Of a DNA stretch of 64,000 nucleotides, positions 4,359 to 17,048 are shown one piece after another. Both the position numbers and the translations under genes were made by a program. The notes under the pieces are model-generated. The model did not search any database. It worked only from the letters and a program-made list of their open reading frames with translations, and was not told the origin of the DNA. Source of the DNA: Gemmatales bacterium (lineage in GTDB: Bacteria > Planctomycetota > Planctomycetia > Gemmatales > HRBIN36); assembly GCA_046350055.1 (NCBI GenBank), contig JAXMBC010000001.1:248244-312243 (forward strand), written 5' to 3'. How positions within the stretch are numbered: position 1 is the stretch's first letter; the number at the start of each line of letters is the position of its first letter.

Positions 4359-5305
4359 GAATTGGCTCCTTCATCGCGGAGATGGCGGCCGGTGAGTTTG
4401 ACAAAGACATCTTCCAGTGTCGCAGTGTGTGTGGTCAAACTGGTGAGTTTGCGCTGCGACTGTGCAGCCCAGTGAAGCAGCGCTGGAAGAGCAGTATGCA
4501 CTTCCTGTACTACCATGGTGTAGCGTTGCCCTTCTCGTCGCACCTCTGTGGTGGCAGGGAGTTGCCTGACCTGTTCAATGTCCTGGTCCTGGTGACTATC
4601 CATCTCAAATTCGACAACGTGGCCGCCACCGAGTTCATCGATGAGTTGCCGGGGTGGCCCCAGGGCAATGAGTTTACCAGCGTCCACCACGCCGACACGG
4701 TCACAGAGTTTTTCTGCTTCGTCCATGTAATGGGTGGTCAGCAGTATGGTACGGCCCTGATCCTTGTACCCCTGGATGATCTCCCAGAGTTGTCGGCGTG
4801 ACTGGGGATCGAGCCCGGTGGTGGGCTCATCGAGAAAGAGGAGTTCCGGTTTGCCGACGATTGCGCAGGCGACAGCGAGTCGCTGTTTCTGCCCACCGGA
4901 GAGTTTGTTGACCCAGGTGTTGGTCTTTTCCTGAAGGCTGACTGCCTGAATGGCTTCATCAGGTGAGATGCCTTCGTGATAGAAGCTGCGGAAGAGGCGG
5001 ACGGTCTCGCCGACGGTCAGCTTGTCGGAGAGTTTGGTTTCCTGGAGAGAGATGCCGATGCGTTCGCGAATAGCAGGACCATCGGTTTTCCAGCGCCGGC
5101 CCAGAACCTCGACTTCGCCACTGCTGGGCTCCAGTAGCCCTTCCAGTATCTCGATAGTAGTGGTCTTGCCTGCACCGTTAGGGCCCAGCAGCCCAAAGCA
5201 CTCGCCGGTCTGAATGGTGAGGTCCAGCCCGCGCACCGCTTCCACGGGTGGTTTGGCAGGGTAGGTTTTCCTGAGGCCGATACATTGGATGGCGACAGAA
5301 CCCAT
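4355..5305 (-). CDS. ABC transporter ATP-binding protein (DrrA/CcmA-like)
   Basis: Walker A GPNGAGKTT, signature LSGGQKQRL and Walker B LLFLDEPTTGLD. ATG 5305 (MGSVAIQCIGLRKTYP) is preferred over the longer ORF starting at 5407. Confidence 0.9.
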   Translation of the reverse strand: MGSVAIQCIGLRKTYPAKPPVEAVRGLDLTIQTGECFGLLGPNGAGKTTTIEILEGLLEPSSGEVEVLGRRWKTDGPAIRERIGISLQETKLSDKLTVGETVRLFRSFYHEGISPDEAIQAVSLQEKTNTWVNKLSGGQKQRLAVACAIVGKPELLFLDEPTTGLDPQSRRQLWEIIQGYKDQGRTILLTTHYMDEAEKLCDRVGVVDAGKLIALGPPRQLIDELGGGHVVEFEMDSHQDQDIEQVRQLPATTEVRREGQRYTMVVQEVHTALPALLHWAAQSQRKLTSLTTHTATLEDVFVKLTGRHLRDEGANS

Positions 5306-5576
5306 AAGGCCTCGTTCATGAGAGAGACGAAAGGATGAGCGGATCAGCAGGTATTCGGTTCGCTGGCAATTATCTTCGATGATCTTACGATGCTGACAAG
5401 TGAACACGGCCGGAACGTAGATAAACTGGGTAGACTCCTGTCCCAGCTCAATGCTGAGTCAAATTAAGAAAAACGGGTAAAACGCCCGTTTTGAACTTTG
5501 CAAACAAGGGTCATCTGTTATAAGTTGATAGTAGTTCATTAGATCGTTTCATCGGTTATACCCAGGAAAGGGAACC

Positions 5577-6152
5577 ATGAATAAGTCCATGCGTACATTC
5601 ATTGGTGCCACACTGGCACTGGTGCTTCTCATACCTGTGCCTGCATTGGGTCTGACCTTCCTGGGCAGCTGGCGTTTCTTCACCAGTTCGACAGGTGGCA
5701 CCCCAGGTGGCAATCTGACCCCCTCGGTTTCTGATAATCCCAACAGTTACATGCTCACTGTGCCCATGGGCATTGTGGATCCACCTTCGAATGTGTCCAA
5801 GTATTCCGTGACAGCTACCCGCGATTTCCAGATCACCGATCCCAGCGAGTTGATCCGTATCGCTCACAGCTTCAGCACCCTGATGCGTGATGGTACCATC
5901 AATGTCACCATGACGATCCAGCGTTACGGTGTGCCCAACGATCCGTTCAACTTCCCTGCCTATAGCTTCAATGCTCCGGCTTTCCCTGCCCCGGTCTCTA
6001 ATCCCGGGTTGAATAACTTCTTCAAGGATGGTTCGCTGACGCAGGGTCTCTATCGCCTGTCCCTCACGCTGACCTACATCCGCAATGTGAACAGCAATTC
6101 GAACTGGAACAACAGTTCGCCACACGTGTTCACTTTTAATCGCATCCCGTAG
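5577..6152 (+). CDS. secreted hypothetical protein
   Basis: Signal-like N-terminus MNKSMRTFIGATLALVLLIPVPALG. A classic intrinsic terminator follows. The antisense ORF 5556..6125 was rejected. Confidence 0.7.
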   Translation: MNKSMRTFIGATLALVLLIPVPALGLTFLGSWRFFTSSTGGTPGGNLTPSVSDNPNSYMLTVPMGIVDPPSNVSKYSVTATRDFQITDPSELIRIAHSFSTLMRDGTINVTMTIQRYGVPNDPFNFPAYSFNAPAFPAPVSNPGLNNFFKDGSLTQGLYRLSLTLTYIRNVNSNSNWNNSSPHVFTFNRIP

Positions 6153-8992: not shown

Positions 8993-11419
8993 TTATCCCC
9001 TGTTCAACCGTTCCAGTGCCTGGGTGACTTCGTACTTCTGCGGATGGTCGTACATGTTGGCACTCTGATAGTGCCTCTTTGCTGCGGCCCGGTCGCCCAG
9101 TCCTTCGGCTGCCTGGCCCATTTTGTAGTATGTCTCGGCGCCACTCTTGGTTGACTTGCTGAAGTGCTGGTAGCACTCCAGTGCTTCCGGATATCTGGCC
9201 AGTTGCAGGTAATGATCAGCCATGATGCGGCAGGCCAGGTACCACTGTTCCAGGTCTTCGCCACCCGGCTTGTCGGCTGCACCCAGTTGCACGGCGTATT
9301 CCAGGGCTTTCACGCCATTGTCAGTCTGGCCCAGCCGGAGGAAGCAGCGACCGATGAGAGCCCAGCCTGCTACCCGCTCCGGTACCGCCACCGTCAGTAA
9401 TTCGGCCAGGTGTCTGGCCCACTCCAATTGCTCCACACCGGCATTCTTGATCTCGAGAAGCTCCTTGCTCTTCTTGATGAGATAGTTAGCATCGATGAGC
9501 TTGCCGAGTTTTTCCGCATGCGTGGTCACATCGGCAGGTGTCAGGGAGACATACAACCGTTCGCGACGTTCCAGATATTGCGGGTTCTTGCCATCATACA
9601 TCAGGCATTGCTCGTTGTAATGCATCGTCTGCACGACGTTGCCCTGCATCTCGTAGAGTTCTGCCAGCATGCGCAGCGTATCCACACCGCTCTCTGCAGC
9701 TTCGCTGGCCAGGAGAAGATTGTCGATAGCCACCTGGGGCGACTGCCTGCCCGCCTTGGCATCCTGATAGGCTGCTTCGCCCAGTTGCTTGACAGTAGAG
9801 TAATACGCAGCCTGGCTCTCCTTACTCATTTCCTTGACGGCCAGGAGGCTTGTCCAGACTTTCACTTCGTTCAGGGCCTGGCTGGTCAGCTTGAGATTGC
9901 CATGTTTGCGAGCCGCATCGGCTGCCAGTTTCCACACGGCAGCGGCATGTTTGGGTTGCCCGCGCACGGCGATGGCCAGTAGCTCAATACCCCGTTCATA
10001 GGTGGCTGGATCATCCAGCAGTTCCAGCCCGCGATCATAGACGAAGCGATGGTCAAATGCACTGGCCTGCTGGGTCAGGCTCTCACCTGCTTCGCGGTTG
10101 TACTCAGCCAGAGTCACGCCGTCATAGAGTCGAAGCTTGAGGGGCTGCAACTCTTCACGAGGCATCTCTCCCGTGGCACTCTCTACGGCAGCAATGGCGT
10201 TCATCCGCTGCCCGGATTGCAGCAGCGGTTCACCGACGCGCTTCTTCATCTCCTGGTGCTGCAGCAAGGCCAGTTGCCAGGCAGGGATGATAACCCGCTG
10301 GCGACTGGCCTGTTCATCAGGACTGAACTCACGGGCATCGAGCAATTGCCTGAGCGTCTGCTCTGCCTTGTCAAAGTCCCTGGCATGGGTGTAGGCCACG
10401 GCCCGGTAGTACATCACCGCGGGGCGCAGTGCGGGACGCTGATCGATTACCAGATCAAGCAGTTGCTTGGCTTCACCAATCTGATCAGCGGTGATTCCCT
10501 CGCTGAACAGGATGTCCCGGGCCCGCTGCAGACACATTTCAAAGTCGATGAGCTTCAGCAGCCGTTCATCCTGATGCACCTGGTGCAGGTCAATCTGGCG
10601 ATGAACCTTCCACAATTCCTGGCGGGCGGAGTGATGTTGCGGCGAGAAGTGCAACGCACGGCGGAAACTTGTCAGCGCCTCTGCTGTAGCACCCTGACGG
10701 GCATGGCCCATGCCACGCAGCAGGGCCTTGAAGGCCTGCATATCACGCAGCAGGTACTGCGTGTACCCCACGTAAATAACCAGTGGTATCAGCATGGCCA
10801 TCAGTTGAAATGCCGGCCCGAGCATGACCCACAGGGAAATACCCAGCAGCACGCATACCAGGCCGATCTCGATCTCGGTTTCTTCCGTTTGGCCGGCAAG
10901 GGTCAGCAGGTAGAGGACCGGAATGGCGAGCAACAGATGCAGGCCCAGGAGTGACGGATTCACGACCTGTACATTGTCGCGGAAGACGTAGAAGATGCAG
11001 AGGGCGACTGCTGCTGCCCCGAGCGCCAGGACCATCATGCGGCGGAGTTTTTTCTCAGCAATCAGACGCAACCCGATGAGAGCCACTCCCGTGGCCAGGC
11101 CCAGCCCCAGGGCCAGCAACAGGTCTTTCACTGTCCATGTCTGCAGGGCGAATGTAACCAGCAGCGAACCTGTGAGCAGGCCTGCCAGTACGCCGACAAA
11201 GTGGAAGGTCGGATACTCCAGCAACAGGTAGACGAGGTAGCTCAGCGAGAGCGAGGCAGGTTTCCCCGTAGCAGCCTTGCGATGAGCCAGCAGCATCGAA
11301 GCAGCCAGCCCGGCTAGCATGAGCCCGTAGACGAGTAAGGTGGCCAGAGGCTGCCCCTGCCATCCGAGATAACCCAGGATGCCAAGCGTCAGGCCTTTGG
11401 TGAGATATTCGAAGATCAT
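8993..11419 (-). CDS. multi-pass membrane protein with a large TPR-like repeat domain
   Basis: 808 aa. The N-terminal ~230 aa hold several hydrophobic helices. The remainder is alpha-helical and repeat-rich, with A/Y/L TPR-like spacing. Confidence 0.7.
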   Translation of the reverse strand: MIFEYLTKGLTLGILGYLGWQGQPLATLLVYGLMLAGLAASMLLAHRKAATGKPASLSLSYLVYLLLEYPTFHFVGVLAGLLTGSLLVTFALQTWTVKDLLLALGLGLATGVALIGLRLIAEKKLRRMMVLALGAAAVALCIFYVFRDNVQVVNPSLLGLHLLLAIPVLYLLTLAGQTEETEIEIGLVCVLLGISLWVMLGPAFQLMAMLIPLVIYVGYTQYLLRDMQAFKALLRGMGHARQGATAEALTSFRRALHFSPQHHSARQELWKVHRQIDLHQVHQDERLLKLIDFEMCLQRARDILFSEGITADQIGEAKQLLDLVIDQRPALRPAVMYYRAVAYTHARDFDKAEQTLRQLLDAREFSPDEQASRQRVIIPAWQLALLQHQEMKKRVGEPLLQSGQRMNAIAAVESATGEMPREELQPLKLRLYDGVTLAEYNREAGESLTQQASAFDHRFVYDRGLELLDDPATYERGIELLAIAVRGQPKHAAAVWKLAADAARKHGNLKLTSQALNEVKVWTSLLAVKEMSKESQAAYYSTVKQLGEAAYQDAKAGRQSPQVAIDNLLLASEAAESGVDTLRMLAELYEMQGNVVQTMHYNEQCLMYDGKNPQYLERRERLYVSLTPADVTTHAEKLGKLIDANYLIKKSKELLEIKNAGVEQLEWARHLAELLTVAVPERVAGWALIGRCFLRLGQTDNGVKALEYAVQLGAADKPGGEDLEQWYLACRIMADHYLQLARYPEALECYQHFSKSTKSGAETYYKMGQAAEGLGDRAAAKRHYQSANMYDHPQKYEVTQALERLNRG

Positions 11420-11499
11420 GCGTTTATGATATGGCCAGGGTGGCCCGCTTACTGGTCAATTTCGCCCCATCTTCCGCTCATGAGCAACACTGCTCGTCG

Positions 11500-12042
11500 T
11501 CACGCGTGTACATCTTCCACCCATTCACAACGCAGTTTGCTGCGGATCAATTCCTGCAGGCCATCAGGCATATTCACCACTTCCAACAAGTGGTACTGCA
11601 TCTTCCAACTGCGATGCACCAGCAGCCAGAACTCATGACCACACACCACATGATCGTAGGCACCCCAGCCAAAGCGGGAAACGACTTCTTCCAGCTCGAT
11701 GAGAACGTGTTCTTCGCGAAAGGTGAAGTGGATGGTGAGCGTAGGCAGGGTCTTCTCCTGCTGCTTGAGCTTGAGAAGCAACAAGCCAACCAGACCGAAG
11801 ACACCCACCACCATGCCGATGAGAAAGAACAGGAGATTGTCGTCAAACTGGAGCCAGCCCGGAAAGAGTTCCATGGAGACATAGAGGGCTGCGAAGACAG
11901 CGACGGTGATGAGAAACACCACCACCTTGCCTTTCGATGATTGCCAGAAAGCCGACTGCTTCTGCGATTCCAATGTCATCAAACGATTGGCAGCAAGAAT
12001 GGCCCGTGGCGTGATGGCGACGGTCGTAGAGTACTCAATCAT
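11500..12042 (-). CDS. YcxB-like small membrane protein (tentative)
   Basis: 180 aa with two adjacent TM helices (VVVFLITVAVFAALYV and LLFFLIGMVVGVFGLVGLLLL) followed by a ~70-aa soluble domain. The opposite-strand ORF 11431..11940 looks like an antisense artefact. Confidence 0.5.
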   Translation of the reverse strand: MIEYSTTVAITPRAILAANRLMTLESQKQSAFWQSSKGKVVVFLITVAVFAALYVSMELFPGWLQFDDNLLFFLIGMVVGVFGLVGLLLLKLKQQEKTLPTLTIHFTFREEHVLIELEEVVSRFGWGAYDHVVCGHEFWLLVHRSWKMQYHLLEVVNMPDGLQELIRSKLRCEWVEDVHA

Positions 12043-12130
12043 GTTGCACGTTCGCCTTGGTAATACGACACAGCATCAGCCACGAGAGTATTGTAATGAC
12101 CAGCGTGCCTGCTGCCCCGAGGGCGGCACT

Positions 12131-13822
12131 TCAAGCAACACCTCGCCGGGCCCGGCGGGTGAGGTGCAGCCAGAAGGCGATAGCGACGAGCAAGGCGGCG
12201 ATGCGGGACCACCAGGGGGAGTAAATAACAACAGGTAAGGCATAGCAGTTGAACGACTGCAACTCGATGTCTTCTGGCCGGAAAGCACCTCGAATAGATA
12301 AGGTGTAGAAATGCTTGAAAATATTACTTCCCGAATCCGTGTTCAGAGCAAACTGAGACCCCCAGCGAGCCACAATCCGCTGTTGTGGCAAATCGTACAC
12401 CACCGTTTCATAACGGATAGTCTGCCAAAGCCATTCAACCAGGTTTTGCAGCCAGCGATGTTTCTCTGCCCAGCCACGCACAATCTTTTCCCATTCATCC
12501 TCCAGGACTCTGACTGCCACGACTTGACTGGCAGTAGCTTCATACCCCATCCGGTTTTCCGACATGAGTTCTGCAGCGGAATACTTGAGTTGAAACTGCT
12601 CGCCTTTCTGCTGAAGTACCACGAACGACTTACGCAGAGCCGACGACCCGTCTGCGTTGCGATTACCAATCAATTCTCCTTGCTGATACTGCCAGGTCCA
12701 ATCGGCATGGGGCCAATCGTCTGGCCACCGCAATGGCTGGAGTACTCCTTCATTCCAATAGTAAATCCGTTGCACTTTTGTTGCAATTGCTGACAGATCA
12801 GGTGATTTCACCATTAACTTGAGGAGTTGATCTGCTGGTTGCGGCTGCATGTCTCGCAACTTCCAACCGGAGGCAATGAGAAAGGGCCCTACCCAGAGTA
12901 TTTCTGTTGCCTGATAATCGGTGTTCTGTTGGGTCAAAACGGTTTTACCAGTATGCGCATTACACATGACAGTCTGGCTCGATTTTATATGCAACCATTC
13001 TTCCAGCATTGCTACATCGACTAACGCTTTGTCGCGTGAAACCAATTTCGATAGCAGTTCCGCTTTAGACCACAGATTCACCTTCAGCGCTACAGTCCAC
13101 TTGCCATCATCCGAAAGCATTGGTGGACTCGTACATAGCGGCATCGTCTGCCAGGTGGCAAGCAGTTGGGGTTTCGTCTGCCCCTGGGTTGGCAACTGCC
13201 AGGTCTGGGTGATCCTGTAGGGGCTTTCCTTCTCCTGCATATCCATGAGCATGACATGCCAGTCGTATTGCACCATCAGCCAGGAGAACCAATTGGGATG
13301 TGAGCAATAAAAGAGTGCTCGCCAGGGCCACGAGCCGTGGAGTAGTATCGTCGTCGAGCCGAGCGGCCAATCGACTTGCATATTCCAGGATAATTTCCAC
13401 GACTGCAGGATTTCTTCCTGGGCAGTTCCGTCAGGATTCCAGCGAACCAACGACTTTGTTACGCCATCGTCGTCTTTGTGATTCGACTCCAGTCGGTAGA
13501 AATGGCCCTGATGTCGCCTTGGAATCATCAAGTTACTGCTGCCTGCAAAGTTTGTCTTCACGTTGAGGTGATGCAATTTCTGCCCGGTGCGTAGATCGAG
13601 GAGCACCAGAGATTGATCATCGCCCAATTGCAAATTCGCTTCCCGATAGACAAGCAGTTGATGCTGGCCGGGGTACTCTTGCAATGGGATCAGGGTTTCC
13701 TTGGCCTGTAACTTTACACGCCACAACGGCTTCGGTTCAAGCCACCATGCGACCAGCCACCATACCAGGCCGCCGAGGAGCAGGCACCAGAACGCACGCC
13801 AGAGGGGGTGTCGGCGCTTCAT
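12131..13822 (-). CDS. double-anchored Trp-rich protein, paralog B (unknown family)
   Basis: The start MKRRHPLWRAFWCLLLGGLVWWLVAW at ATG 13822 overlaps the stop of paralog A (ATGA). The C-terminus is YSPWWSRIAALLVAIAFWLHLTRRARRGVA. Both termini are conserved with the upstream gene. Confidence 0.75.
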   Translation of the reverse strand: MKRRHPLWRAFWCLLLGGLVWWLVAWWLEPKPLWRVKLQAKETLIPLQEYPGQHQLLVYREANLQLGDDQSLVLLDLRTGQKLHHLNVKTNFAGSSNLMIPRRHQGHFYRLESNHKDDDGVTKSLVRWNPDGTAQEEILQSWKLSWNMQVDWPLGSTTILLHGSWPWRALFYCSHPNWFSWLMVQYDWHVMLMDMQEKESPYRITQTWQLPTQGQTKPQLLATWQTMPLCTSPPMLSDDGKWTVALKVNLWSKAELLSKLVSRDKALVDVAMLEEWLHIKSSQTVMCNAHTGKTVLTQQNTDYQATEILWVGPFLIASGWKLRDMQPQPADQLLKLMVKSPDLSAIATKVQRIYYWNEGVLQPLRWPDDWPHADWTWQYQQGELIGNRNADGSSALRKSFVVLQQKGEQFQLKYSAAELMSENRMGYEATASQVVAVRVLEDEWEKIVRGWAEKHRWLQNLVEWLWQTIRYETVVYDLPQQRIVARWGSQFALNTDSGSNIFKHFYTLSIRGAFRPEDIELQSFNCYALPVVIYSPWWSRIAALLVAIAFWLHLTRRARRGVA

Positions 13823-15495
13823 GCGACACCCCGGCGGGCGTGGCGGGTGAGGAGCAGCCAGAACATCAGGGCGGTGAGGAGCCCGGTGAGGCGAGACCAC
13901 CAGGGGGAGTAGATACGCAGGGGGAGGGAGTAGCAGTGGAGCGACATGGAATCTACCTGCTCGCCATCCATCCGATAGGAGTGGGTATAAAGTGATGACA
14001 ATGCATGAGTGAATTGCCTGCTGCGCATCATCACCTGCTTGCTCAGGCGATGTGGTGGATGCTTGTCGTTCACGCTATAGATCATGGTATCCTGCCATTG
14101 CAAGGGCCTGATCCAGTCTAGTAGTTTCTTGAGCCAGTTTCGCTGATCTGCCCATCGTTGTAAATCGACTGCATAGGGAACACGGTTCTCCTGATTGACG
14201 ATCAGTTGTGTGCCCGAGGGTTCGGTCACCACGTTCCATTCCGCGCCTGGCAATCTGCTCGGTGTCAACGCGTTGACCGTCGACGCACTGGTGATTGCCA
14301 TCCAATGAATCGTTTGCGGTTTCTGTTCCCTGTCAAGCAGGCTGGCGGACAGTCGTCCATGGCTGTATTCGAAATGCCAATCATTCCATGCTCGCTCATC
14401 TGGCAAAGGCACCGGTTCAAGCGCATGGCCATTCCAGCGATGGATCATCAGCCGTGGAGGCCAGAGCTCATCGCGCGACTTGTTTCGTTGCAACTCCAGT
14501 TCCGAGATGCTTATGGAATGACTCGACCACCATTCGCGGAAGTGAGTGATGAGGTACGGACCGGCCCAGTATGCCCGTTGGTAACTGCCCTTCTCAAGAG
14601 TCGGTAGTTCCGCCATAACCGCACCAGTGGCAACATCCGTGATCTGTATGCAATTGCTCTTACCCAGATAACAATACGCGATTTCAACTGGAGTAAGCGT
14701 CGGCTTACCAAGTGCCCGGGCGCGGCTGAGCGGGGCAGTTTGCCTTAAGCCATGCATAACCAGATGGACCTGCAACGACCGTCCCTCCACGCTGGTGTAG
14801 CGAGTGAACTCGCGATCAAGCATGCAGCGCCAGGTATGAAGCTTATCCGGAGCCTCGCCGGCATATCGTGACAGACGGTAACTTTCTGCAACTCGAAATT
14901 GCCAAAGCTCATCTATCTGAATTGCAAGTGAGCCAAGCAACATAAGCCCATAGTGTTGCCTGGTGAACATGAGTGGTATCCAGTTCCATCGCAACTCATG
15001 TTCGACAGTGAAGACATCGCTACCCAACCGCCAATCCACGTATGTCTGCCAGGGCCAGTTGTTTTCCCAACGGGCGACCACCTTGGCTTTCTGGTCTTGC
15101 TGAAAGTCCCAACGCATTAATTGCCAACTACCCCTGATCAGATTGTCATCACGGGTTAGCCACCATACGGCGCCATGGAAGTAGCGTGGTAAACGTTCTT
15201 CTCCGCCAACACCCACCATGGGTTGTTGAAGTGGAATCGACTTCCGCACCTGGCCGTTGCTACTGTCTAGCAATTGCATTGAGAATGGACCGTATGGCCC
15301 CGCGGCCAGTTCAGTGCCATTCATCACGACCAGATCTTGCTCCGGCCATTCCACCAGCGGCATCATCATCATCTTGCCAGTTTGCACACTCCATCGTGGC
15401 CGCGGCTCCAAACCCCACGCGACCAGCCACCATGCCAAGCCGCCGAGGAGCAGACACCAGAACCCACGCCACACTGGCCTGCGGCGACGACGCAT
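13819..15495 (-). CDS. double-anchored Trp-rich protein, paralog A (unknown family)
   Basis: 558 aa. N-terminus MRRRRRPVWRGFWCLLLGGLAWWLVAW and C-terminus YSPWWSRLTGLLTALMFWLLLTRHARRGVA. Starts 4 nt after the acpS stop. Confidence 0.75.
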   Translation of the reverse strand: MRRRRRPVWRGFWCLLLGGLAWWLVAWGLEPRPRWSVQTGKMMMMPLVEWPEQDLVVMNGTELAAGPYGPFSMQLLDSSNGQVRKSIPLQQPMVGVGGEERLPRYFHGAVWWLTRDDNLIRGSWQLMRWDFQQDQKAKVVARWENNWPWQTYVDWRLGSDVFTVEHELRWNWIPLMFTRQHYGLMLLGSLAIQIDELWQFRVAESYRLSRYAGEAPDKLHTWRCMLDREFTRYTSVEGRSLQVHLVMHGLRQTAPLSRARALGKPTLTPVEIAYCYLGKSNCIQITDVATGAVMAELPTLEKGSYQRAYWAGPYLITHFREWWSSHSISISELELQRNKSRDELWPPRLMIHRWNGHALEPVPLPDERAWNDWHFEYSHGRLSASLLDREQKPQTIHWMAITSASTVNALTPSRLPGAEWNVVTEPSGTQLIVNQENRVPYAVDLQRWADQRNWLKKLLDWIRPLQWQDTMIYSVNDKHPPHRLSKQVMMRSRQFTHALSSLYTHSYRMDGEQVDSMSLHCYSLPLRIYSPWWSRLTGLLTALMFWLLLTRHARRGVA

Positions 15496-15498
15496 CGG

Positions 15499-15882
15499 TT
15501 ACTCCCCTACCGCAATGGCGGTCGCGGTCGCGTACTCGCGACAGTGGGAGAGGCTCAGCAGGATGTTGCTGATCCGTTTCTCGATCAGGAAGTCCTTGCT
15601 TGTCCCAGCGACGTGGACCACCGGTTTGCCGAAGTCATCGCGGCGAATCTCAAAGTCGGTCCACTGGATCTGCCCGCGCCAGCCGGTGCCCAGGGCCTTG
15701 AAGATGGCTTCCTTGGCGGCCCAGCGCCCGGCAAAGTGTTCCGTCGCCCGGGCCTTGCCGTGGCAGTATTCAATCTCGTGTGGGGTAAAGATGCGGTGCA
15801 GGAAGTGGTCGCCGTGTTTGGCGATCACCCGGGCGATGCGGGTGCATTCGATGATGTCAGTGCCGAGGCCGTAAATGGTCAT
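15499..15882 (-). CDS. acpS: holo-[acyl-carrier-protein] synthase
   Basis: 127 aa. IYGLGTDIIECTRI near the N-terminus and FAGRWAAKEAIFKALG are canonical AcpS (4'-phosphopantetheinyl transferase) motifs. Confidence 0.9.
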   Translation of the reverse strand: MTIYGLGTDIIECTRIARVIAKHGDHFLHRIFTPHEIEYCHGKARATEHFAGRWAAKEAIFKALGTGWRGQIQWTDFEIRRDDFGKPVVHVAGTSKDFLIEKRISNILLSLSHCREYATATAIAVGE

Positions 15883-16035
15883 AGGGAGATTGTAACATCT
15901 GGTTCATACCGTTACCAAGGGAGAGTTCGAGGAGCAACATTCCATGCTCATCGCAAGATCGCTAGCATTTGCATCGTGCTACCCCTCCCAACCTCCCCTT
16001 GGAAAGGGGAGGAGTGGCATCTGCATTACACAATG

Positions 16036-16932
16036 TCACACGGAGGTGCTCAATAACCCCGCTTCTTGTAGTGCTGCCCGCATTTGTTCGAGCTTCGCGT
16101 CTGCGAGCGGGGCGATGGGGCCGCGGCTGGGACCGAGGTCGATGCCGAGCAGACGCATGGCAGCTTTGGGACCACCGGGGGCGGTGGCAAGCATCAGGCT
16201 CAGACGCACGGGATGGAGTCGATGCTGGGCCGCCAGTGCACGTGTGGCATCGCCTTGCTGAAAAGCTTCGTATATTTCCACGCACAACTGCGGTGCGACG
16301 TTGGCTGAGGCGGCGACAGCTCCCTTCGCGCCGCAGACCAGGCTCGGGTAGATGATCGTATCCCGTCCCTGGAAGACGCTCACATGGCTGGGCACCACGC
16401 GGACATAGTCGATCATGTTCTGCAGGTCGCCACTCGAATCCTTGATGGCCACGATGTTGGCACAGGTATTCACCAGGCGGCCCACTGTTTCCGGGTTGAT
16501 CTTCACTCCCCCAGCCGGGCCGGGGTTGTTGTAGAGCATCACGGGCAGCCTGGTGCTCTCGGCTACCCGACGGTAGTGAGTGAACAACTCGTCCTGCGTC
16601 GGTTGCACGTAATAGGGCGTGATGACTGAGACACCGTCTGCACCTTCGCGCTCGGCCATGGCTGTCAGGCGGATCACCTCGCGAGTCGATTCGGCCCCGG
16701 TGCCGATGATCACCGGCAGCCTGCCCGCGACATGGGCCACAGCGGTGCTGACGATCTGCTGTTTCTCTGCTTCGTCGAAGGCATAGAACTCGCTGTTGGT
16801 GCCGAGCACGAAGAGGGCATGGACCCGGGCTGCGATCAGGTGATCGAGGAACCACTGGAAGCGCGGAAGATCGAGATCTTCGTTGGCCAGGAGCGGCGTG
16901 ACAACGGGGGGAATGATGCCGTGGAAGTGCAT
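16036..16932 (-). CDS. dapA: 4-hydroxy-tetrahydrodipicolinate synthase / DapA-family aldolase
   Basis: GIIPPVVTPL, GTNSEF, VIIGTG, ITPYY, LYNNP and AIKDSSGD follow the DHDPS/NAL family pattern. ATG 16932 is preferred over the 17034 extension. Confidence 0.8.
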   Translation of the reverse strand: MHFHGIIPPVVTPLLANEDLDLPRFQWFLDHLIAARVHALFVLGTNSEFYAFDEAEKQQIVSTAVAHVAGRLPVIIGTGAESTREVIRLTAMAEREGADGVSVITPYYVQPTQDELFTHYRRVAESTRLPVMLYNNPGPAGGVKINPETVGRLVNTCANIVAIKDSSGDLQNMIDYVRVVPSHVSVFQGRDTIIYPSLVCGAKGAVAASANVAPQLCVEIYEAFQQGDATRALAAQHRLHPVRLSLMLATAPGGPKAAMRLLGIDLGPSRGPIAPLADAKLEQMRAALQEAGLLSTSV

Positions 16933-17048
16933 GGGGGGTGCCAGGGGTTTTAGTGAACCATCAGCAAGAACGTACAGCAGTCGCGTGATTTGCGGCTCGG
17001 CAGGAGCGCCTCCCATCTCGCATGGTCGTAGCAAGACAGGTCATTAAC

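Follow-up and report, generated by a model that had tools for sequence, protein, structure and literature searches.

The stretch of DNA considered here (hereafter the window) is a 64,000-nucleotide piece of contig JAXMBC010000001.1 from a Gemmatales bacterium, and it carries two adjacent genes that we call paralog A and paralog B. On sequence grounds, these are tandem paralogs belonging to a small, unannotated family of planctomycete (Gemmatales-type) proteins. The explanation that we favour, and hold to be probable without being secure, is that the members of this family are inner-membrane proteins in which two conserved helices anchor a non-enzymatic, eight-bladed periplasmic beta-propeller with a scaffold-like role, A and B being lineage-specific duplicates.

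Both proteins have the same layout, with a predicted transmembrane helix near each end (TM1 and TM2) and one large domain in between. All of the genes involved lie on the minus strand, and the parts of A and B are found at the following positions of the window:

13819..15495, minus strand: paralog A, 558 amino acids (aa), with TM1, a predicted eight-bladed beta-propeller, and TM2
15409..15477, minus strand: TM1 of A, residues 7-29, a helix in the AlphaFold2 model with a predicted local distance difference test score (pLDDT) of ~97, followed by the juxtamembrane motif LEPxPxW
13927..15393, minus strand: ectodomain of A, residues 35-523, a predicted beta-propeller with helical insertions (DSSP strands, Foldseek)
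13825..13902, minus strand: TM2 of A, residues 532-557, a helix in the AlphaFold2 model, with LPxxxxSPWWxR before it and an Arg-rich tail after it
13819..13822, minus strand: ATGA, the overlap between the stop of A and the start of B, read from the sequence
12131..13822, minus strand: paralog B, 563 aa, organised in the same way as A
13739..13807, minus strand: TM1 of B, residues 6-28 (AlphaFold2 model)
12239..13723, minus strand: ectodomain of B, residues 34-528, a predicted eight-bladed beta-propeller (AlphaFold2 and Foldseek)
12137..12214, minus strand: TM2 of B, residues 537-562 (AlphaFold2 model)

When A and B are aligned over their full length they share 27% identity (BLASTP, E 8e-43), with 26 of 35 positions identical in the N-terminal block and 27 of 40 in the C-terminal block (~70% at the ends) versus ~21% in the middle. 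Tryptophan makes up 6.3% of A and 6.6% of B, versus 0.3-3.3% of five neighbouring proteins. An earlier description of this locus, made from the letters without database searches (the sequence-only reading), had proposed tandem paralogs with conserved ends and a diverged, Trp-rich middle, and these figures bear it out. The motifs that it quoted are all present, namely RRxxPxWRxFWCLLLGGLxWWLVAW (a pattern that is one residue off for B), YSPWWSR...TRxARRGVA, WPDDWPHADWTWQYQQG, and ERAWNDWHFEYSHG. Recent gene conversion was considered as the source of the terminal likeness and rejected, because the same codon is used at only ~55% of the identical residues in the A and B termini and because the motifs are kept family-wide; the low codon agreement points instead to selection on the protein. 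As judged from the alignment, the terminal similarity is not due to chance, since the same motifs are the best-kept part of 41 aligned family members.

A profile search of 1.84 billion cluster representatives recovers 57 family proteins at E<=1e-3, and 30 of these at E<=1e-10; nearly all are 530-590 aa long. The alignment used throughout comprises 41 members, each 13-25% identical to A, and a hidden Markov model of this alignment (A2) scores A at 438 bits and B at 477 bits, both being in the seed. Both also carry the family signature (a length of ~530-590 aa, the N- and C-terminal motifs, the helix, and the basic tail). Less sensitive approaches see far less of the family: word-indexed homology searches return only the near-identical metagenomic copies P0001 and P0002 and the 38%-identical P0003 from a Gemmatales metagenome-assembled genome (MAG), and the same kind of search with the 41-member profile adds no new relatives. 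Scans with the family patterns yield no relative in genome contigs, one short partial locus and no more in metagenome contigs, and no relative in viral contigs. Those members whose source is named come from Gemmatales and Planctomycetia MAGs, and several other member contigs bear typical planctomycete genes (SBP_bac_10/DUF1559, PSCyt/PSD1). The sequence-only reading recognised no family for A and B, and curated libraries agree: a Pfam scan of all 41 members gives no match, and neither A nor B has a match in NCBIfam (E<=1) or PADLOC. A sequence-profile search of the PDB finds only a weak single-blade match to the propeller of acyl-peptide hydrolase (E 0.009).

The terminal motifs are conserved outside this genome, as the profile search and the alignment both make clear. 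Across the 41 members the consensus at the N-terminus is R..W....LLLG..WW.V..WLEPxPLW and that at the C-terminus is Y.LP....SPWWxR.AG...L....RR. Conservation peaks at residues 1-40 (0.47-0.55) and 521-540 (0.61), with values of 0.14-0.41 in the middle. P525 is invariant, and W22, P31, W35, G81, L126, W129, W143, G291, S530, W532, and W533 are nearly so; where at least 65% of members agree, the residue is almost always W, P, G, or L. The alignment contains no conserved His, no conserved Cys, no catalytic-type Ser, and no acidic constellation, the sole conserved Ser being S530 in SPWW. A Tat signal at the N-terminus was considered and rejected, as the twin-Arg is not kept across the family. The copy of A in a closely related strain (P0001) has Gly at W22 (window 15430..15432), a position occupied by Trp in 37 of the 41 members.

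Whether the central domain might be a propeller had been raised by the sequence-only reading, and structure prediction gives a consistent answer. AlphaFold2 models built with the 41-sequence alignment have a pLDDT of 85.4 and a predicted template modelling score (pTM) of 0.84 for A (model m1a1bc0e36a04), and 88.5 and 0.86 for B (model mcf3de4a20ab5). Each consists of a long N-terminal helix, ~34-35 beta strands (by DSSP) in runs of four, and a long C-terminal helix, with three or four helical insertions in the all-beta domain and a pLDDT of ~95-97 in the terminal helices. Foldseek searches of the PDB return only beta-propellers for both proteins. For B, the top matches are BamB, with a template modelling score (TM-score) of ~0.5 on the target, the designed eight-bladed Tako8 (0.61), and then the eight-bladed Fbw7; those of A include BamB (3prw), Cdc4, and sortilin.

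The distribution of charge suggests how such a protein might sit in the membrane. Averaged over the family, net charge falls from +2.75 ahead of TM1 to +0.5 past it and rises from -0.2 ahead of TM2 to +3.4 in the tail, a positive-inside pattern of the kind expected if both termini are cytoplasmic and the propeller is outside. The same topology, with a periplasmic middle, had been proposed from the Arg clusters of the two window proteins, and the family-wide pattern is in line with it. There is little room for anything on the cytoplasmic side: the protein ends 3-25 residues past TM2 across the family, and the predicted N-terminal cytoplasmic stub is up to ~25 residues long, with longer N-terminal regions only in P0011, P0014, and P0057.

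Taken in order, a short, Arg-rich cytoplasmic stub would lead into TM1, which would act as a signal anchor and cross the membrane once. The following ~490 residues would fold into an eight-bladed, Trp-rich periplasmic beta-propeller, after which TM2 would cross back and leave a basic tail of 3-25 residues in the cytoplasm. Because the first and last strands of a propeller meet, TM1 and TM2 should exit the domain side by side, and the probable outcome is an antiparallel hairpin by which the propeller would be clamped flat to the outside of the membrane. Constraint in such a protein would fall on the two helices and on the juxtamembrane motifs next to them (WLEPxPLW and LPxxxxSPWWxR), leaving the propeller surface free to change quickly. 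The most likely role is that of a membrane-tethered binding platform or scaffold, similar to BamB but working from the inner membrane; a scaffold is preferred over an enzyme because it is W, P, G, and L that are conserved, and no residue of a catalytic type. A possible partner is the conserved multi-pass tetratricopeptide repeat (TPR) protein encoded downstream.

The genes surrounding A and B, together with one promoter-like match, are located as follows:

15499..15882, minus strand: acpS, holo-ACP synthase, 127 aa (PF01648, E 1.4e-21; TIGR00516, 98.7 bits versus a cut-off of 59.8)
11500..12042, minus strand: a 180-aa membrane protein, diverged YcxB-like (25% identity, E 3e-8, to positions 5134-5682 of related locus L014)
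8993..11419, minus strand: an 808-aa protein that combines an N-terminal, multi-pass membrane domain with TPR repeats (TPR Pfam matches)
15889..15918, minus strand: a sigma-70-like promoter match upstream of acpS (9/12 consensus with a TG extension), weak and consensus-only

These genes are closely packed. The TAA of acpS is followed by CCG and then by the ATG of paralog A at 15495, so that A starts at the fourth nucleotide past the stop, as the sequence-only reading had stated; the ATGA that it placed between A and B at 13819..13822 is likewise there. The gap from B to the 180-aa gene is 88 nt and that from the 180-aa gene to the TPR gene is 80 nt, with no terminator-like sites between the acpS, A, B, 180-aa, and TPR genes. 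Promoter-like sites in the region occur at the frequency expected from shuffled sequence, and the match upstream of acpS is no evidence of function. No tRNA genes and no Rfam families at the gathering threshold are found across the 64-kb window. It may also be seen that the acpS TAA is in frame with A, with the single codon CCG between them (15496..15501); read-through would fuse AcpS to A, and we see no evidence that this occurs.

Comparison with related loci (L numbers) shows that the space between acpS and the TPR gene is a slot with changing contents. The order is YjeF_N - acpS - P0005 - TPR in L021 and P0018 - TPR in L011, and it is YjeF_N - acpS - YcxB-like - TPR, with no family member, in L014 (a Gemmatales bacterium). 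Upstream, the slot is bordered by a conserved acpS, which shares 87-88% identity with its counterparts in L014 and L021. The TPR protein is 70-72% identical to the genes directly downstream of members in L011 and L021 and to the TPR genes in L013 and L014. In the same comparison the slot genes are only 20-22% identical between lineages. The 180-aa membrane protein is a second variable occupant, absent from the slot in L011 and L021; its counterpart at L014:5134-5682 matches PF14317 (YcxB) at E 2.6e-9, and the window protein itself falls below the Pfam model threshold. The 808-aa TPR protein belongs to no specific family, having generic TPR matches and sub-threshold ones to MamA, PilW, and PorW. 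L013 (CAYPJB010000002.1) is titled "uncultured Bacteroidales bacterium" yet its TPR protein shares 72% identity with the Gemmatales one; the bin has probably been mislabelled.

Elsewhere the family is found in quite different surroundings. P0003, which is the closest relative of B, is a singleton in another context, and P0007, P0009, P0014, P0026, and P0030 are single genes beside unrelated genes. A second tandem pair exists at L016:5703-8952, where P0020 (526 aa) and P0017 (550 aa), separated by a 16-nt gap and 40.6% identical, sit between a DUF6268-like gene and a carbamoyl-phosphate synthase gene. Adjacency of a member and the TPR gene is seen at 3 of 5 TPR loci, and in 3 of the 10 lineages with a readable gene context; nothing else points to a partner, and this recurrence beside a TPR membrane protein does so only weakly.

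The sequence-only reading had placed A and B in an operon with acpS, and this can be kept in part. Co-transcription of the slot genes with acpS is plausible because of the tight spacing and because the acpS - member - TPR order recurs in L021, which is a distant lineage; a standing association does not hold, as L014 has no member and seven members lie elsewhere. We think that the acpS adjacency probably reflects conserved gene order in this clade and not a role in lipid metabolism, since AcpS is a cytoplasmic protein and, as in L014, the slot may hold no member. The idea that the tandem pair is a conserved feature is not supported: most members are singletons (P0003, the nearest to B, among them), the one other pair found arose independently, and B is frameshifted in a sister strain.

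In a neighbor-joining tree B groups with the singleton P0003, with A just outside, which places the A/B duplication before the split from the P0003 lineage; P0020 and P0017 cluster on their own, so the duplication in L016 was independent. The tandem pair is lineage-specific, and most members are singletons.

Recent change can be followed by comparing the window with a 97-98% identical sister strain. The ratio of nonsynonymous to synonymous substitution rates (dN/dS) reaches 0.45 in A and 0.23 in B, values that come from only 33 and 20 substitutions, respectively, versus 0 for acpS, 0.03 for ycxB, and 0.05-0.07 for TPR. In L002, L004, L005, and L006 (four contigs of that strain, 98% identical to the window and each from a different sequencing run), B has lost a single nucleotide at nt 959, window 12864 (GGTTGG to GGTTG), and is thereby split into ORFs of 319 aa and 227 aa; the frameshift must be recent, because the downstream part is still open in its new frame. 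Synonymous divergence (dS) from the sister strain, compared over window 8993..15882 with L001, L002, L004, and L005, is mosaic, being ~0.03 in A/B, 0.09 in ycxB, 0.12-0.15 in acpS, and 0.23-0.45 in TPR, and the first 96 nt of A account for 16 of its 33 differences. These patterns suggest recombination boundaries around the A-B block. In the sister-strain copy of A (P0001), V8L, G11A, and A21V move towards the residues of B. Synteny with the sister strain ends at ~16017, 135 nt upstream of acpS and just downstream of a dihydrodipicolinate synthase-family gene (16036..17034). In place of that gene, the sister strain encodes an 835-aa TIR-Sel1-DUF2610 protein (L001:3-2510), and this 2.5 kb stretch has no match in the 64-kb window.

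Several points weigh against the picture of a double-anchored propeller scaffold and should be kept in mind. The Foldseek TM-scores are modest, at most 0.61 on the target and at most 0.40 on the query. The count of eight blades and the packing of the two helices against one another are deduced from DSSP and the matching templates, and the membrane topology from hydropathy, charge, and AlphaFold2. The TPR gene has no neighbouring family member in L013 and L014, and seven members are in unrelated contexts; any partnership with the TPR protein is therefore not obligatory in cis. The frameshift that B carries in the sister strain shows that at least one of the copies can be dispensed with. Finally, a fast-evolving surface fits a loosely constrained scaffold and diversifying selection equally well.

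Diversifying selection is central to an alternative in which A and B are outward-facing recognition or defence components (a receptor decoy for phages or toxins, or a sensor whose conserved helix hairpin works in the membrane) and the acpS-TPR slot is variable and island-like. The hypervariable ectodomain between conserved transmembrane ends, the raised dN/dS of 0.45 in A, and the independent duplication of the gene more than once would all fit, as would the presence/absence polymorphism seen in L014, the frameshift polymorphism in B, the mosaic divergence around the locus, and the TIR-Sel1 gene directly upstream of acpS in the sister strain. Against it, PADLOC has no match for A, B, the ycxB-like protein, or the TPR protein, viral contigs hold no relative, the dN/dS values stay below 1 on their small number of substitutions, and the contexts of other members are made up of housekeeping or catabolic genes. 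We consider this alternative unlikely. A bolder version, to which we likewise give only an outside chance, would make the propeller an exchangeable, periplasm-facing subunit of a Gemmatales-specific complex with the TPR (alpha-solenoid) protein, its surface being driven to diversify by phages, toxins, or further ligands from outside. If this were true, the complex would be an undescribed split beta-propeller/alpha-solenoid membrane module, and it would account for the persistence of a hypervariable gene at one set position with a conserved gene on either side.

It is also conceivable, though improbable, that the conserved ends are processing signals, that is, a cleaved signal peptide and a C-terminal tag of the PEP-CTERM/exosortase (or sortase/rhombosortase) type that is lost as the propeller becomes attached to the cell surface. 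The C-terminus does have the three-part layout of such a tag (a short motif, a hydrophobic helix, and a basic tail), and planctomycetes are generally known to encode exosortase systems. However, the curated sorting-domain models in NCBIfam give no match at E<=1, and among the six-frame ORFs of the window and L001-L014 it is in family members alone that SPWW is followed by a hydrophobic helix and a basic tail, whereas sorting tags are common to unrelated proteins. The N-terminal helix is among the best-conserved segments and is modelled with a pLDDT of ~97, unlike a signal peptide, and no conserved AxA-type cleavage site follows it.

That the propeller is a membrane-anchored enzyme (e.g., a PQQ-type dehydrogenase, lactonase, lyase, or peptidase-gating propeller) seems to us quite improbable. 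The Foldseek list does include paraoxonase, tetrathionate hydrolase, carotenoid oxygenases, and prolyl oligopeptidase propellers, and the weak PDB profile match to acyl-peptide hydrolase (E 0.009) is of the same kind. Nevertheless, no Pfam enzyme family is found in the 41 members and none in NCBIfam, the columns conserved in at least 65% of members yield no set of catalytic or metal-binding residues, a second catalytic domain is absent, and the ectodomain is ~20% identical between lineages whose flanking genes are 70-88% identical.

The sequence-only reading in its strongest form would make A and B obligate partners in a heterodimer with a functional link to AcpS and lipid metabolism. Such a view draws on the very tight spacing (3 nt, and the ATGA overlap) and on the recurrence of acpS adjacency in L021, but it is very improbable indeed given that most members are singletons (P0003, closest to B, is alone in another context), that the L016 pair arose independently, that B is frameshifted in the sister strain, that L014 keeps acpS - ycxB - TPR without any member, and that AcpS is a soluble cytoplasmic enzyme whereas the propeller is predicted to be periplasmic.

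Returning to the double-anchored scaffold, the model, if it holds, would describe an uncurated family in which closure of the propeller ring coincides with a conserved membrane helix pair and in which there is essentially no cytoplasmic domain. The rate heterogeneity within this one conserved cluster is extreme, with flanks that are 70-88% identical and a slot gene at ~20%. The family would justify a new domain-database entry, and it would give work on the Planctomycetes envelope a concrete candidate, open to testing, for a periplasmic scaffold or recognition protein that is specific to one lineage. No long-standing open question is touched; the fold is a common one, and it is the double-anchored arrangement that is uncommon.

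One of the best points of comparison is BamB (YfgL), the eight-bladed lipoprotein of the BAM complex, which is the best solved match for B (9mgg_B, 7nri_B, 4xga_A, and 8orr; E ~1e-8, TM-score ~0.5 on the target). BamB and, by prediction, the A/B family are both non-enzymatic, membrane-tethered periplasmic propellers; they appear to have the eight-bladed fold in common (Foldseek, ~34 strands, the blade count being deduced), and the (L/I)xD..TG strand motif of the family recalls PQQ/BamB-type blades. The differences are nonetheless substantial. Sequence identity is ~9%, with no match to TIGR03300 or to the PQQ Pfam models, and the family is ~150 residues longer, with helical insertions. There is no lipobox: Cys14 lies inside FWCLLLGG, without the L-[AS]-[GA]-C context, and in place of a lipoprotein signal one finds an Arg-rich stub and a 22-residue helix. 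The predicted two-TM anchor would place the protein in the inner rather than the outer membrane. Since sequence match and lipobox are both absent and the anchor is of another kind, the A/B family does not belong to the BamB family.

The larger propeller families can be treated in the same manner. PQQ-like and WD40 proteins (PF13360, PF01011, PF00400) have the propeller fold and isolated blade motifs (SxDGxW, DxxTGk) in common with the A/B family, but the Pfam repeat models match none of its members at E<=0.01. Membership of PQQ_2 or WD40 was examined with hhalign against neighbouring proteins of these types in the related loci and rejected, the probabilities being only 0.8% (PQQ_2) and 17% (WD40) and the matches confined to single blades.

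Three further systems resemble the family in membrane plan or in their ends. Reg_prop/Y_Y_Y hybrid two-component sensors have a propeller ectodomain between two membrane helices, followed by large cytoplasmic kinase, receiver, and DNA-binding domains. The A/B family has the same flanked ectodomain but lacks the kinase/receiver output after TM2, having only short stubs and no Pfam matches. Polysaccharide co-polymerases (Wzz/PCP) have a cytoplasmic N-terminus, TM1, a large alpha-helical periplasmic domain, TM2, and a short cytoplasmic C-terminal tail. This is the plan predicted for A and B, although their domain is all-beta, PF02706 gives no match, and no polysaccharide genes are nearby. PEP-CTERM/exosortase tags share the motif, hydrophobic helix, and basic cluster at the extreme C-terminus; in the A/B family, no model matches, the motif is SPWWxR and is private to the family in the window and L001-L014, and it is paired with an equally conserved N-terminal helix. 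Set against all of these, the A/B family has a common fold in an uncommon, double-anchored setting and evolves very fast in a fixed slot.

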